The translations under genes and the position numbers were made by a program. Positions 1,553 to 31,848 of a stretch of 31,848 nucleotides of DNA are shown here, one piece after another. This DNA is from Anaerohalosphaeraceae bacterium (GTDB lineage: Bacteria; Planctomycetota; Phycisphaerae; Sedimentisphaerales; Anaerohalosphaeraceae). The stretch covers positions 1 through 31,848 of the forward strand of contig JBNRMN010000074.1 in NCBI GenBank assembly GCA_050309605.1. The letters are read 5' to 3'. Under the pieces are notes generated by a model. That model ran no database searches and had not been told where the DNA came from. It saw only the letters and a list, made by a program, of their open reading frames with translations. Every line of letters starts with the position of its first letter. Position 1 is the first letter of the stretch.

Positions 1553-2618
1553 TAAACCGGAAATTGATGATGTCGCCGTCCTGCACGATGTAGCTTTTGC
1601 CTTCGAGCCGCATTTTACCGGCGGCCTTGACCGCTTTTTCATCGCCGAGTTGCCGCAGATCGTCGCAGGCCATGGTCTCGGCCCGGATAAAGCCGCGTTT
1701 AATGTCCGAGTGCACTTTGCCGGCGGCGTCGTGAGCGCTGGTGCCCTTTTCAATCGGCCAGGCCCGCACCTCGTCCTTGCCCACGGTCAAAAAGCTGATC
1801 AGTCCCAGCGTCCGATAGCAGGACTGGACAAACTTCCACGCCGCCGGCTCGGTCAGGCCCATGTCCTTCATAAATTCGCTGCGGCTCTCGGCATCCAGCG
1901 CCGCCAGTTCGCTTTCGAGTGTTGCGCACAATGAAATGGTTTCCATCCCCTGAGCCGACGGACCGAAATCAAATGTCTTGTCCGGCTCGTTTTCATCCGT
2001 ATTGACGACGACCATCATCGGCTTGAGCGTCAGAAAATTCAGCGCTCGCACGATCTCCATTTCCGGTCCTTCGGTCTGCTCAATGACGCTTCGGATGGGC
2101 TTTTCGGACTCGATGGCGTCCTGCAATTTCAGTTGCAGCGTCAGCTCGGCCTTGTCGCGCGACTGCGTTTTGCTCGGCTTGTGGACTTGTTTTTCAAGCC
2201 GCTCGATCCGCGTGGTCACCAGTTCCAGATCCGCCAGCAGCAGCTCGGTACGCAGTTCATCCAAATCCCGCTGCGGATTGACGCTGTTGCGGTATGCCGG
2301 CGCCGACGGATTATCGAACGCACGCACTACCAGCACGAATAAATCCGCCGTGCGCCATTGATTCAACTGCCGCCGTGCCGCGGCCCGCCCGTGATCGTCC
2401 AGAAACGACAACCCCGGCAAGTCCACACAATCGACCGTCGCGTGTACTGTTTTTTTGGGCTGATAAAGCTGCGTCAGCCAGTCCAGTCGTTCATCGGGCA
2501 CCGAGACCATCACTTCGTGTGCTTCCGTTGAGCCTGTCGGCGCCGGGTCTTTGCCGCTGACGGCCGAGACGAGAGTACTTTTGCCCGATTGGGTTAATCC
2601 TAAAATCGCCGCTTTCAA
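1545..2618 (-). CDS. ychF: YchF/OLA1-family ATPase (divergent, with TGS/DUF933 C-terminus)
   Basis: GxxxSGKST, VPDERL, DLPGL, EVRAW, AAGKVHSDIKRGFIRAE and YIVQDGDIINFRFNV. TTG start with an AAGGGA SD; the alternative start is 2624. Confidence 0.9.
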   Translation of the reverse strand: MKAAILGLTQSGKSTLVSAVSGKDPAPTGSTEAHEVMVSVPDERLDWLTQLYQPKKTVHATVDCVDLPGLSFLDDHGRAAARRQLNQWRTADLFVLVVRAFDNPSAPAYRNSVNPQRDLDELRTELLLADLELVTTRIERLEKQVHKPSKTQSRDKAELTLQLKLQDAIESEKPIRSVIEQTEGPEMEIVRALNFLTLKPMMVVVNTDENEPDKTFDFGPSAQGMETISLCATLESELAALDAESRSEFMKDMGLTEPAAWKFVQSCYRTLGLISFLTVGKDEVRAWPIEKGTSAHDAAGKVHSDIKRGFIRAETMACDDLRQLGDEKAVKAAGKMRLEGKSYIVQDGDIINFRFNV

Positions 2619-27408: not shown

Positions 27409-28668
27409 TTATCCCACCTGCACCAGTTCACTCCATCGCGTCGTATAGCAGGCCGAGCGGTGGTTGAATTGCGTTTGCCAGGGTTTGACGATGCCTTCGG
27501 CGGCAAAGGCGACTTGTTTGTGGTGTCTGTTGAGCCGATCCAGTGTCGCCATCAGGCGGCTGTCCCGTTGACGTGTGGCGGGATTGTCGAACAGGTTCAG
27601 TTGTACCCGATTTTTCGACACCAGCCCACTAAGCAGGACTCCGGCCTTCTTGAATTTAACTCCATCCCGATAGACCCGTGCGGCCAGCGGCCCGACCGCC
27701 TTGACCAGTTCCACGCTGCTGTCGGTTGCCGTCTCAAAGATATGACTGGCTGCATTCGAGTAGGCGTTGGCCTTGTCAAACCGGTTGCTCATCGCAAACA
27801 CCGTCAGCGTCTTGACGCATAACCCTTGCTGACGCAGCTTTTCGCCCGCCCGCACCGCATAGCTGCACACCGCCTCGTGCAGGGCGTCCAGCGTTGTTAC
27901 CGGCTGGCCGAATGACCGCGACACACAGATATTCTGGTTCGGCGCAGGTGTATCTTCCAACCCAAAGCACATCTGCCCCCGCAGTTCCAGCACCGTCCGT
28001 ACCGTCATCACTGAAGACGCCTTCTGAACCCACCGGGTATCGGCCTGGGCCAGTTGCTTTGCGTTGACAATCCCGACCTTACGCAGCTTGGCCGCGATCC
28101 GACGGCCCACGCCCCAGACCTCCTCGACCGGGGTGCGTTCCAGCGCCGCAGCAATATACCGCTCCTGGGTCAAATCCAGCACCCCGGCGGCCTTGTCGGA
28201 CGTCTTGGCCAGATGGTTGGCCACCTTGGCCAGCGTCTTGGTTCGGGCCATCCCCACCGAGACCGGAATCCCCGTCCATTGCAGCACCGTCTGTCGCAAG
28301 CGTCGTCCATAAGCGTCCAGATGGCTGTCGAATCCCTCCAAATCCAAAAACGCCTCGTCAATCGAGTACATCTCCATCGACGGCGTAAACTGCCCCAGCG
28401 TCTGCATCACGCGGCTGGACATATCGGCATAGAGAGTATAGTTCGAAGACAATACGGCCACGTTGTGTTTTTCCAGCAGGTCGCGCACCTTAAATGCCGG
28501 CGTACCCATGCCGATCCCCAGCGCCTTGGCTTCATTGCTGCGGGCAACGATACAGCCGTCGTTATTCGACAAGACCACCACCGGCCGTTTCCGCAAGCCG
28601 GGGTCAAAGACCCGCTCACAGGACACATAGAAGTTGTTGCAATCGACTAAAGCAAAAAGGGTACTCAT
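27409..28668 (-). CDS. umuC: Y-family DNA polymerase V catalytic subunit
   Basis: [43 protein letters not shown] and a QLNLF clamp motif. Confidence 0.95.
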
Positions 28669-29090
28669 AATGGATGAATCACATTGGTTACCACGCCCCA
28701 GACCTCAAACTCCATCCCTTCGGTGATGGGCTGGACGGGGTAGTTGTCGTTTTCCGGTTCAAGCGAGTATGTGCCGCGGCGAATCCGCAGCCGCTTGACG
28801 GTTAACTGCCCGTCGAGGACGGCGATGATGACGCTGCCGTTTTTCGGGTCTTTGGCCCGATCGACGATTAAGAGGTCGCCGTCATGAATTCCCGCCCCGA
28901 CCATCGAATCCCCGGCCACCCGGACAAAGAATGTCGCGGCCGGGTTCTTGATCAGATGCTTGTTCAAATCGAGCTTGCTTTCTTCATAGTCCGCCGCCGG
29001 GGACGGAAACCCCGCTGCAATCCGCGCAATGAACGCCGGCAGTTTCTGCTCACTGAACTGTGGTTTGAATATTTTATCGACTTTCGCCAT
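28665..29090 (-). CDS. umuD: DNA polymerase V autoproteolytic subunit (S24 peptidase)
   Basis: [12 protein letters not shown] cleavage site, GDSM Ser and TVKR Lys. ATGA overlap with umuC. Confidence 0.95.
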
Positions 29091-29117
29091 TGTTATTCTC
29101 TAAAACATTAAACCATG

Positions 29118-29126
29118 ATTATAGCA
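29118..29126 (-). promoter_or_regulatory. Extended -10 promoter for umuDC
   Basis: TGcTATAAT on the minus strand, 28 nt upstream of the umuD ATG. Confidence 0.6.
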
Positions 29127-29257
29127 ATTCGCGATGGCTAAGAAAACATTGAGGTATTTTTCTTTACGGCAGCGGATTGGCAATCTGCTTTTGCGCCAAC
29201 TCGGCGGCGATGTCGCCGGGGTTGTTTTTGAAGCGGTATTGCATTTCCAGGGATACA

Positions 29258-29323
29258 AGCTTGCGGCACACATTCGGCTCGATGCTGGTCGCGTCCGACA
29301 TGCATCCCAAGACCGCCCAAGCC
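29258..29323 (+). pseudogene. Tyrosine integrase catalytic-box fragment
   Basis: SLRHTFGSMLVASDMHPKTAQA matches the HxLRH...HPKxAQ region of phage integrases. Only about 22 codons remain. Confidence 0.7.
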
Positions 29324-29370
29324 GGATTATTGCAGACTATTCCGGACAGTTGGGGTTTTCAAGTGGAAAC

Positions 29371-29406
29371 AAAAAAACCCTGTTTTCACGCGAAAAACAG
29401 GGTTTT
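29371..29406 (-). terminator. Terminator downstream of the tRNA-His fragment
   Basis: 13-bp stem AAAACCCTGTTTT/AAAACAGGGTTTT with an A7 run (U-tract on the minus strand). Confidence 0.75.
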
Positions 29407-29422
29407 GGGCCTGAAAATCAAA

Positions 29423-29468
29423 GGGTGGAAGAGGGGATTCGAACCCCCGACCCCCAGAACCACAATCT
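29423..29468 (-). other. 3' half of tRNA-His(GTG), an att site of an integrative element
   Basis: Minus strand AGATT-GTG-GTTCTGGGGGTCGGGGGTTCGAATCCCCTCTTCCACCC gives the anticodon loop, T-arm and acceptor 3' strand. No matching 5' half is present. Confidence 0.88.
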
Positions 29469-29469
29469 A

Positions 29470-29664
29470 ATGCCCGAATCTTCTAACCAGCAGGATTTAC
29501 AAGGGCTTACAGATTCCGCATCGACCCACTATGTCAAACACTTAGCCATCTGCCTGCAAAAATACCCCGAATTGGCCGCCCTGATTGAGCGGTGGGAATC
29601 ACTGCCGGAGAGCGACCGCACACAGATCATCGAACTGGCCGGAGCGTCCGGCTGGAACCCATAA
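29470..29664 (+). CDS. Small helical protein or domain (PELAALIERWESLPESDRTQIIEL), in-frame with the att core
   Basis: ATG 2 nt from the att core with no SD. The frame is open from 29134 through the att site. Confidence 0.6.
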   Translation: MPESSNQQDLQGLTDSASTHYVKHLAICLQKYPELAALIERWESLPESDRTQIIELAGASGWNP

Positions 29665-29689
29665 TGTTTTTTCAAAAAGGATGAGAACA

Positions 29690-29839
29690 ATGAACCAGGA
29701 ACTACAAAAACAGATCGAGGAACTGAACGACCGGCAACAGGTATTGTTTCTGCGGCTATTGACGGCAGCAACCGAAACCCGTGAAGGCCGGAAACATCAC
29801 ACGGTCAATTTAGCTACTCGGCTCGCACAGGCAGTATAA
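29690..29839 (+). CDS. 49-aa hypothetical protein
   Basis: AAAGGA SD; MNQELQKQIEELNDRQQVLFLRLL amphipathic helix. Confidence 0.55.
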   Translation: MNQELQKQIEELNDRQQVLFLRLLTAATETREGRKHHTVNLATRLAQAV

Positions 29840-29906
29840 ACCAACGGGGCGGCAAGAACGGGTGTATCTTGCCGCCCGCCACCCTTAAAAAGACATGAGG
29901 TGTCCA

Positions 29907-30176
29907 ATGAGAAAGAGGCAAAAAGCCGCATCGGAACCCGCTCTTTATACCAAAGACAACAGGTTGACCGCAAAACAAGTATCCGCCGAATACGGTATCT
30001 GTATCTCGACGCTGGCCAACTGGAGGCAGAATCGATTGACCGATCCGCGGTATCCGCGATACCACAAGCTGTTTACCGGGCGGGTGTATTATATTCGTGC
30101 CGAATTTGAGGAAGACTTTGCCGCCATGCACATCGAGACCGAACTAAAAATGCCGAAGGGTAGACGAAGACAATGA
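29907..30176 (+). CDS. Excisionase/AlpA-like winged-HTH protein
   Basis: LTAKQVSAEYGICISTLANWRQ...PRYHKL..GRVYY and a GAGGTG SD. Confidence 0.8.
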   Translation: MRKRQKAASEPALYTKDNRLTAKQVSAEYGICISTLANWRQNRLTDPRYPRYHKLFTGRVYYIRAEFEEDFAAMHIETELKMPKGRRRQ

Positions 30177-30194
30177 TTTTGCCTCAAAAAAAGG

Positions 30195-30225
30195 TTTGCG
30201 ACGGATCGCAAATTCAGGCTAAAAT
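30195..30225 (+). promoter_or_regulatory. Promoter (TTGCGA-N18-TAAAAT) overlapped by the palindrome TTTGCGA-CGGA-TCGCAAA
   Basis: Perfect 7-4-7 inverted repeat at 30195-30212 covering the -35 box. Confidence 0.6.
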
Positions 30226-30257
30226 AACCAACGGGTATTTTTCAAGGAGATATAAAC

Positions 30258-31073
30258 ATGGGAAGCGGCGGAAGTCAAAGCAGTAGCTCATCACAGCAAA
30301 GCTATACACCGGAACAGAAAAAGTGGCTGGGCAAGACGCTGGGGGTCTATGGGCCGGAACTGGGGCAAAACAACAACGTCTGGCAAGGCGACCGATTGGC
30401 CGGATTTGGCGACCTGCAATCAGATGCGTTGAACAGGTCCAGCGGACTTCTTGATGTTTTTAGTAGCGGGTTTCAGGACTTGCCGTTGTTTAACCAGACG
30501 GGAACGACGCTGGACGACCTCTTGAAAGGCACGGCGGGCGCTGGTAAACTCACGCAGGCCGACACGGACGCTTTCTTTCAAGGGTCGATCTACGATCCGA
30601 CCATGAAGTCGCTTAAGCAGGACATGTTGCCCAGTGTAGACGAGTCGTTTGCCGGTACAAACTTCTTCGGCTCCGGCCGTGCCCAGACGCGGAACAAGAT
30701 GATTTCGGATACATCCGATGCCATGGCCAAGGCGAGGGCGGACTTGAATTGGAATGTTCTGGGGCAGAATCAGGCACTGGACGAGGCGTCGGCTAACCGG
30801 ATGCTGACGGCTGTGCCGCAAGCGATGCAGTACGGAATGATGCCGACGCAGGCCGGGCTGGCGCAGTTGCAGGGGCTGGGCGGCCTGTTTGATATGGGCA
30901 GTGCCGAGCAGACGCAGCGGCAGGCCGAGATCAATACTGCCATCCAGAAGTTTGCCGAGGAAAATCAGATCACCGACCCGGACAATCTGGCGATACTGAT
31001 GAGTCTGTTGAATATGAATTACAGCAGTAGGACAGAAAACGCAAGTCAATGGGACGCGAAGGTATTCTTTTGA
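30258..31073 (+). CDS. Phage-like protein, resembling internal virion/DNA-ejection (pilot) proteins
   Basis: AAGGAG SD. MGSGGSQSSSSSQQSYTPEQ N-terminus, 'WQGDRLAGF' and 'FFGSGR' segments, and a Q/A/G/N-rich helical composition. The family call is pattern recognition only. Confidence 0.6.
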   Translation: MGSGGSQSSSSSQQSYTPEQKKWLGKTLGVYGPELGQNNNVWQGDRLAGFGDLQSDALNRSSGLLDVFSSGFQDLPLFNQTGTTLDDLLKGTAGAGKLTQADTDAFFQGSIYDPTMKSLKQDMLPSVDESFAGTNFFGSGRAQTRNKMISDTSDAMAKARADLNWNVLGQNQALDEASANRMLTAVPQAMQYGMMPTQAGLAQLQGLGGLFDMGSAEQTQRQAEINTAIQKFAEENQITDPDNLAILMSLLNMNYSSRTENASQWDAKVFF

Positions 31074-31354
31074 TGCGAGAAGCCGGACAAGCAACAGCAG
31101 GACGGATTATATCCCCTTGCCGCTATCGACCCCCTGACGGCCTGCCGGTGGCGGATTTGGCCGAAATAGACCGACCGCTTGACACGGAAGCCAGTCCCGT
31201 CCGGCTTCGCGTCGGGCGGCTTGTCGTTCTGGATTGTGGCGGTGGATGGCTGAAGGTCGATATCTTGTGTCCAGAGCGAGACAGGGAATCAGAGTTATTG
31301 CCGCCTCAGCGGGCGGCAGAATTGATTCAATGGCTCAAAAGCCAAGTCAAATAA
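31073..31354 (+). CDS. Hypothetical protein (93 aa)
   Basis: The ATG overlaps the upstream TGA (TGATG) and the stop overlaps the next ATG (TAATG). Confidence 0.55.
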   Translation: MREAGQATAGRIISPCRYRPPDGLPVADLAEIDRPLDTEASPVRLRVGRLVVLDCGGGWLKVDILCPERDRESELLPPQRAAELIQWLKSQVK

Positions 31355-31728
31355 TGGACAAAAAAGCCCTACAAGCCGAACTGGAGCAGTACGTCAAGCC
31401 GGAGTACCGGGCGTTCCTGCTGGACCAGATACCGACGGGGGAGGGCTTGTTGAAGCAGATCACACCGCAAAATCCACACTGGGGCGACGTGATACGGCCA
31501 CTGACAAAGATGTACGCCGAGATGAACCGGCAACTGGGGATCGTGTGCCGACATCTGAAGTATCCGCTCCACCAGTGGGAGTGGAACGAGAGCAAGCCGC
31601 TCAACGTCCTGGCCGAGACGTTCAAGGGGATCGAGGCCACGCAGTGGTTCCAGCGGCATCTGTCGATGATGCTGATGGCGCCAAGCGAGGAACATCCCTG
31701 GACAAAAATTATCGACTGGCCGAGGTAG
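31354..31728 (+). CDS. Hypothetical protein (124 aa)
   Basis: TAATG coupling and strongly GC3-biased codons; starts MDKKALQAELEQYVKPEY. Confidence 0.7.
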   Translation: MDKKALQAELEQYVKPEYRAFLLDQIPTGEGLLKQITPQNPHWGDVIRPLTKMYAEMNRQLGIVCRHLKYPLHQWEWNESKPLNVLAETFKGIEATQWFQRHLSMMLMAPSEEHPWTKIIDWPR

Positions 31729-31848
31729 TGTCAAAAATTTTATGAAAGAATGAAAAATCGTATCGTCTTAAATTTTGTGTGTGAATATGAATAACGGATA
31801 TTCTTTTATCGCAAAGATTATCCTTATCTCACCGCCGCAGAATTTAAC

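Follow-up and report, generated by a model that had tools for sequence, protein, structure and literature searches.

What is encoded by an open reading frame that runs straight through a displaced tRNA fragment? The window analysed here, which is the whole of contig C74 of genome G000 (31,848 nucleotides), raises this question with a plus-strand frame of 176 codons (29134-29664 in the list of open reading frames), which reads ...REKQGFGPENQRVEEGIRTPDPQNHNL-MPESS...YPELAALIERWESLPESDRTQIIELAGASGWNP* and crosses both a terminator-like hairpin of the minus strand and a 46-nt stretch of tRNA-His without meeting a stop. The initial annotation had described this stop-free passage across the terminator and the antisense tRNA-His core, which the frame list bears out, and had proposed that the part behind the tRNA is the C-terminal module of an integrase, which is joined to its enzyme only in the excised circle. 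The evidence assembled below makes it highly probable that a phage-like element integrated at tRNA-His has one of its ends in the window, from 29469 onward, that the att site of this element lies inside its own integrase gene, and that the tail of this gene has been left detached at 29470-29664.

The open frame and the tRNA-His attachment site

The features of the locus are:

27409-28668, minus strand: umuC (Pfam IMS, IMS_C and DUF4113), in the flank outside the present element
28665-29090, minus strand: umuD (Pfam Peptidase_S24), in the flank outside the present element
29134-29664, plus strand: the open frame as the gene caller sees it (entry P0032 of the protein collection, 176 aa)
29252-29319, plus strand: older integrase scrap with the catalytic motif ...SLRHTFGSML...HPKTAQ, out of frame with the long ORF
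29314-29422, plus strand: tail-coding remnant of the older integrase, whose minus strand is the 3' flank of tRNA-His with the terminator hairpin (29374-29406)
29423-29468, minus strand: displaced piece of tRNA-His(GUG) extending from the anticodon loop through the 3' end, which is the att core at the far junction of the element
29470-29664, plus strand: probable detached C-terminal integrase module, 64 codons and a stop, a predicted three-helix bundle with the motif PELAxLIERWxxLPE
29690-31848, plus strand: first genes of the integrated element, with two further ORFs after the ejection-like gene; the contig ends at 31848 in a repeat
29690-29839, plus strand: ORF of 49 aa, the first gene of the element
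29895-30176, plus strand: excisionase-like HTH gene (PHROGs phrog_66 and phrog_1553, excisionase)
30258-31073, plus strand: DNA-ejection-protein-like gene (phrog_4287)

From left to right, the open frame is made up of an old integrase scrap that is read out of frame (29134-29313), an old integrase tail, the antisense tRNA and the module of the new element; it is an attP-like relic and no gene in its own right. The scrap is translated in the frame 29177-29470, not in the long frame. Its bases 29258-29319 are 92% identical to positions 1488-1549 of contig C25, which lie within the catalytic domain of an integrase (...LRHTFGSML...), and it stands in a different frame because 227 bp of the C25 gene are missing in the window, so that the suspected displacement of the scrap by decay has proved correct. 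The adjoining stretch 29314-29422 is part of a 155-bp block that is 94.8% identical to C25 1776-1930; altogether, the piece left of the core is only a remnant of ~170 bp of an older, related integrase tail. The genes umuD and umuC, a sigma-54 activator and PNPase lie further left of the tRNA fragment. Since matches to umuDC and to tRNA-His are found on different contigs in genomes of the same genus, the umuDC pair may be cargo of an older, decayed island. Both ends of the window consist of repeats (1-516 and 31724-31848): units of ~125 bp from 296-424 recur as tandem arrays on more than 20 other contigs, and the last 124 bp are common to contigs C87 and C47.

The tRNA fragment is identical at 45 of 46 positions to C25 1885-1930, which belongs to the sole intact tRNA-His gene of the genome (G000:C25 c[1885..1959]). 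The genome thus holds exactly one intact tRNA-His and one fragment, and no complete tRNA was found in the window by ARAGORN. Just downstream of the fragment, the minus strand carries the terminator-like hairpin (29406-29374), which has a 14-bp stem followed by a T-run. An Rfam scan of 28000-31848 returned a tmRNA candidate at 29423-29527 (15 bits against a gathering score of 47), which was rejected as T-arm similarity only; the real tmRNA is located on contig C33.

The two copies of the core are separated by one mismatch, which lies in the T-loop at window position 29438. Contig C25 has the variant (peptide EEGTRTPD) of P0005, a homologous integrase from another assembly, whereas the window has the variant (EEGIRTPD) of P0004, the empty-site form, in which the identical host frame ends ...NHNLVL in an assembly without the element. 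The window fragment is therefore the original 3' end of the host gene, and the crossover is placed within 29439-29468, which are 30 nt of perfect identity. The unoccupied site itself is found on a 6251-nt contig of an unrelated study, which matches window 28700-29468 with one mismatch and passes from there into the tRNA's 5' half, the break lying exactly at 29468/29469. In this strain, which lacks the present element, the old integrase scrap is already in place, and the order at the window junction is therefore older related remnant, core, present element. The locus had been taken for a junction of two tandem elements, and this stands, with the ~170-bp remnant as the older and the present element as the newer of the two.

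Further traces of integration at tRNA-His were seen in related DNA. In a genome of the same genus, a tRNA fragment is followed by a decayed copy of the module (L022, G243:C94 3263-6424; ...LIERWDTLPLFDDRG*), and the intact tRNA-His of G243 is 1.3 kb away. A contig of run X9 (other sample, same study) matches window 29414-29466 and departs from the tRNA-His fragment at 29466 into different DNA, and a variant module with seven differences in 88 bp (window 29565-29652) is present in this run with different flanks; other elements seem to use the same tRNA-His site and the same module.

The integrase at the intact tRNA-His gene

The initial annotation had placed an intact tRNA-His and an integrase at the far end of the element, and both are found on contig C25, where a small, intact HTH gene (181-423) is followed by the integrase and then by the rebuilt tRNA-His. 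The integrase ORF (420-1940, 506 aa) encodes a tyrosine recombinase, which has PF00589 as its sole Pfam match (E 6.2e-21, residues 205-397) and matches phrog_1 (E 4e-43); R245, R359 and Y392 are invariant in an alignment of nine integrases. The gene does not stop ahead of the att site. It continues for ~110 further codons past Tyr392, through the antisense tRNA terminator and the antisense 3' part of tRNA-His, and ends in a TAA two codons past the shared core (...EEGTRTPDPQNHNL-VL*). At the same core, the window frame reads ...EEGIRTPDPQNHNL-MPESS..., in a phase identical to that of the C25 integrase. Joining the C25 integrase in silico at the end of the shared block to 29470-29664 gives a frame without an internal stop, which from its ATG encodes an integrase of 504 + 64 = 568 aa; the join at the 46-bp core, which had been put forward as a check, is thus in frame. 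The tail of the C25 integrase differs from that of P0005 at ~20% of positions, with zero indels, and little is conserved among the aligned integrases in the linker of ~110 aa except for an ALP and an ATGTD motif.

The stretch C25 1-106, which lies just upstream of the HTH-integrase pair, recurs on ten other contigs; it is found at or up to 7 bases from the contig end on nine contigs and is internal on C73. The assembly of the element is broken here by a multi-copy repeat or IS, and dispersed repeats form the ends of both C25 and C74. Since the interior of the element is unassembled, we infer that C25 and C74 hold the two ends of one element. No circular (attP) junction was seen in the public contigs, whose assembly stops at the shared core and loses rare forms. 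The same genome also has a close relative of the C25 integrase (G000:C60 3033-3668), which meets a stop 20 codons past the ALP motif and has no tRNA nearby; this early stop indicates that the split tail is absent from some members of the group.

The module and its occurrence in other genomes

Searching 1.84 billion representative proteins with window 29323-29661 (phmmer) yielded 28 matches, 25 of which carry PELAxLIERWxxLPExxRxxI, always at the C-terminus. Most of these proteins begin with translations of an antisense T-arm, which occur in all three frames (G(I/T)RTPD, G(F/L/I)EP or DSNP), and the database members are mostly called as small proteins of 61-115 aa. A profile of the matches, A1, finds the module in 76 of the 401 Planctomycetota genomes sampled (55/244 among the high-quality ones). 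According to an AlphaFold model from a 26-sequence alignment, helices are predicted at residues 9-31, 33-44 and 47-60, with a pLDDT of ~90 over residues 20-58. The module has no family in Pfam, NCBIfam or PHROGs, and its Protein Atlas matches are unnamed Planctomycetota clusters only. Foldseek against the PDB gave nothing at E <= 0.001, and the best VIA-align Z was 4.1, with no fold match above the background of helical proteins. The acidic character of the module would argue against DNA binding. It ends in ...GASGWNP, which is not -LAA-like; the tmRNA tag of the genome is GNYQYAMAA.

Module-like C-terminal motifs (..ERW..LP..) were also seen on other proteins: an HTH_3 protein of a viral contig (L092 3219-3848), a viral frame of 260 aa that has no Pfam match and looks repressor-like by eye (L093 685-1467 and L094 2823-3605), an AEP-primase frame (L050 3269-4714) and a protein with FHA and Ser/Thr-kinase domains (L048 3477-5189). 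Among the large open frames around the module matches L048-L056, none is an integrase fusion. Such tails on non-integrase proteins indicate that the module is not integrase-specific, and this distribution hints at a portable interaction or oligomerisation domain.

In total, 43 distinct module loci were collected, 21 of which have a strict T-arm at most 450 nt upstream; the other 22 failed the strict pattern and were not counted, and many of them show T-arm-like peptides, e.g., GLEP. The T-arm is antisense at 17 loci, including L016, which was dropped from the frame counts (weak T-arm match, stop within the T-arm, truncated module), and sense at four. From the end of the T-arm to the Trp codon of the module, the distance is 133-164 nt at 13 of the 16 antisense loci, and the spacing is 231-245 nt at the four sense loci. 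The stretch between T-arm and module is free of stops in the module frame at 20/20 loci, compared with 7/20 and 3/20 in the other frames, and the tRNA part alone is stop-free at 19/20, compared with 10/20 and 14/20; since the loci are partly kin and some of the genomes are GC-rich, these counts overstate independence. Neither ATG, GTG nor TTG occurs in frame between the tRNA part and the module at 11 of the 16 antisense loci. Judged by these sequence counts, the frame is open beyond chance expectation. The prediction that homologues of the module would be associated with tRNA remains has held up, as they adjoin tRNA fragments or tRNA copies at element ends.

Integrases were then located in ten other module-bearing genomes. 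In eight of these, module and integrase share strand and contig, with the integrase 3-25 kb further downstream, and all eight integrase frames (219-491 codons) pass through the tRNA copy and share the phase of the module end. Six of the eight integrases stop only a few codons from where the shared block ends, and the frames of G006 and G361 extend 30-40 codons further. Together with the present genome, integrase and module join in frame in 9/9 cases, for each of which the chance is one in three. The target tRNA is tRNA-Ala in G073 and G046, tRNA-Lys in G227, tRNA-Met in G099 and in G161 (where the integrase is decayed), and tRNA-Leu in G006 and, in sense orientation, in G373; no identity was assigned to that of G361. 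The paired integrases are diverse and share 17-32% identity with the C25 enzyme. Genomes G270 and G177, which have no integrase on the contig of the module, were left unpaired, as was G002 (L013/L017), where the nearest integrase on the same strand is 11 kb downstream without reaching a tRNA and no second copy of the core was found in 18 kb. In G073, an element of ~5 kb (L057, G073:C2 165500-174000) lies between two copies of tRNA-Ala, both of which are complete by ARAGORN, with a 483-aa integrase and the module at its opposite ends; its sister element in G046 has ~8 kb.

Unbroken genes, in which integrase and module are contiguous, were found as well. The second scan of viral contigs brought up L091, a locus in an unintegrated viral genome of 43,208 bp, which has direct terminal repeats and is 100% complete according to CheckV. 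In the middle of this genome, a gene for a 72-aa HTH protein, the same small gene that precedes the integrase on C25, is followed by a single ORF of 573 aa, in which PF00589 (residues 196-389), the motifs ALP and ATGT, tRNA-Arg(UCU) in antisense (3' part) and the module follow one another (module match by hhalign: probability 93.7%, E 1.8e-7); the integrase is 33% identical to that of C25 over 432 aa (E 5e-51). A metagenome contig of 2162 bp, L073, is laid out in the same way around tRNA-Arg(CCG) and has an excisionase-like gene next in line, and P0013, encoded on a 742-kb contig, is a chromosomal remnant of an integrase C-terminus that is fused directly to the module. With the in-frame join on C25, these three fusions bear out the initial assignment of the 'WxxLP' domain as a C-terminal module of integrases. 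Fused forms are rare in databases, where one of 25 module matches (P0013) is joined to an integrase. Word-index searches from P0003 and from A1 revealed no longer, fused proteins, and the first viral-contig scan, which used A2, gave no relatives.

Proposed explanation, alternatives and known systems

Three other explanations of the locus have been considered. That the 64-aa ORF is an independent small gene of the element, which encodes a regulator or an accessory recombination factor, starts at ATG 29470 and shares the phase of the integrase only incidentally, is very improbable. The ATG lies exactly at the start of the module and would allow independent translation here, most database members are called as proteins of 61-115 aa, and module-like tails are present on other proteins; however, the bases 5' of this ATG (...CAGAACCACAATCTA) contain no GGAG-like motif, whereas the next three genes each have one, which agrees with the early remark that the domain lacks a Shine-Dalgarno sequence of its own. 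An in-frame start behind the tRNA part is moreover absent from 11/16 antisense loci, the distance from the T-arm is nearly fixed in 13/16, all nine paired ends join in frame, and L091 and L073 have contiguous integrase-module genes. A shade less probable again is the view that C25 and C74 stem from different strains or related elements in a metagenome bin, in which case there would be no single physical element and the architecture of the family may still hold. The genome is an assembly of 97 contigs, the 155-bp blocks of C25 and C74 are only 94.8% identical, and the interior of the element is unassembled, with both contigs ending in repeats. Against this view, the genome, with 99.7% completeness and 0.26% contamination, contains a single intact tRNA-His beside one fragment, and the unitig depths are alike in the likely source run (host 9.7-12.8, element 14.2, C25-like 11.2-13.2); the older integrase remnant, which the empty site carries too, accounts for the 5% divergence of the flanks.

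It is scarcely credible that the 176-aa frame (29134-29664) works as a chimeric gene in the lysogen. It has an ATG start, no internal stop and an entry in the protein collection, but its first ~60 codons are a decayed integrase scrap read out of frame, its middle part is read from the antisense strand of a terminator and a tRNA, no Pfam family matches it, and in the strain without the element the frame just ends ...NHNLVL (P0004).

The preferred reading is that 29470-29664 is the detached end of an integrase gene, because the crossover site sits within the integrase gene in these planctomycete elements. The integrase of the free circle would be a protein of 568 aa with three parts: an N-terminal region with the tyrosine-recombinase catalytic domain, which ends near Tyr392; a linker of ~110 aa, whose DNA would provide, on the opposite strand, the terminator of the tRNA and the last 46 nt of tRNA-His; and the 64-aa three-helix module. 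Crossover in the segment from the anticodon loop to the T-stem (29439-29468) would sever the gene after codon 504. The integrase of the prophage ends in ...NHNL-VL*, with its last two codons taken from the host half of the tRNA and with all catalytic residues kept, and the module is stranded at the far junction, where it has neither a promoter nor a ribosome-binding site. Excision would restore the continuity of integrase and module.

Whether the full-length and the truncated integrase differ in activity or specificity, by analogy with IntP and IntX of Mx8, is evenly balanced in our estimation; if they do, the state of the element, integrated or excised, would be both recorded and enforced by the structure of the gene itself, with the participation of the excisionase-like gene (29895-30176). 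In the primary work on Mx8, IntX is reportedly less active. More doubtful, although conceivable, is a wider role, in which the module would be a portable control domain of planctomycete phages, serving oligomerisation or docking to a host factor, that is carried by integrases, repressor-like HTH proteins and replication proteins, and whose removal by integration would provide a built-in switch of directionality or lysogeny across the phylum. If true, such a portable-module switch would be a bacterial counterpart of the archaeal 'all-in-one' integrase modules and of integration-dependent immunity.

To our knowledge, the textbook cases of an integrase gene that spans its own attachment site are limited to two myxophages and the archaeal SSV-type elements. 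Here, the design of Mx8 appears as the rule for a diverse group of Planctomycetota integrases, with the module present in 76/401 sampled genomes. For annotation, this suggests that small ORFs without a start beside displaced tRNA fragments are integrase tails and that integrase ORFs overlapping tRNA genes are no errors, and the reading frame allows the ends of an element to be paired and attP to be rebuilt. These elements would also be a clean system for asking how a tyrosine recombinase is tuned by a domain at its C-terminus that can be detached. Mx8 gave int-attP cassettes for Myxococcus, and the present findings suggest such cassettes for planctomycete genetics.

The myxophages Mx8, whose integrase is called IntP in the phage and IntX in the prophage, and Mx9 resemble the elements described here in that the ORF of a tyrosine integrase extends across attP. 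The core is likewise the antisense 3' part of a tRNA, where the tail of the Mx8 integrase reads ...ARSTGLEPVLLG...; the tail of this protein (533 aa) passes through the antisense T-arm (...STGLEPV...) and then continues for ~95 aa, and an excisionase-type gene is present. According to the Islander paper (PMC4383910) and a review (PMC6070905), integration of Mx8 swaps the C-terminal ~100 aa for a handful of codons from the host and does not touch the catalytic domain; the former describes both Mx8 and SSV integrases as extending across attP, and the latter states that myxophage integration makes a new 3' end of int, by which activity is altered, not abolished. The architecture is thus known from Mx8, whereas the predicted three-helix tail is without detectable homology to Mx8: the profile of the module gives an hhalign probability of 0.1% with Mx8 Int, and tblastn of the module-bearing P0008 against 50,697 phage records found no module match, with one unrelated weak match and no Mx8. 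The host phylum differs as well, and, unlike in Mx8, the planctomycete tail is a conserved three-helix module common to diverse integrases (17-33% mutual identity) at many tRNAs and in both orientations.

A full-text literature search for a planctomycete case, or for an attP within or across an integrase gene, gave nothing relevant beyond these two papers, PMC8371274 and PMC9262239. In the former, a 2021 review, self-disrupting recombinases are called exclusive to Archaea. The 'suicidal' integrases of the SSV type (SSV1, pTN3, pT26-2), which are covered there, are alike in that attP lies in the integrase gene, a tRNA is targeted and the gene is partitioned (PMC8371274). However, the SSV cut parts the N-terminal region from the catalytic domain and inactivates an enzyme of the family PF16795 (Phage_integr_3), whereas the planctomycete cut falls ~110 aa past the catalytic Tyr of a PF00589 enzyme. 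Integration-dependent immunity of mycobacteriophages (BPs, Brujita and others) is alike in two respects (PMC9262239): attP is located at a tRNA 3' end inside a phage gene, and integration strips a C-terminal control element and thereby switches the behaviour of the protein. In the mycobacteriophages, however, it is the repressor gene that is split, and what is lost is a short, ssrA-like degradation tag, whereas the planctomycete element has a split integrase gene, from which a predicted folded module of 60 aa is removed; the HTH gene upstream is intact.
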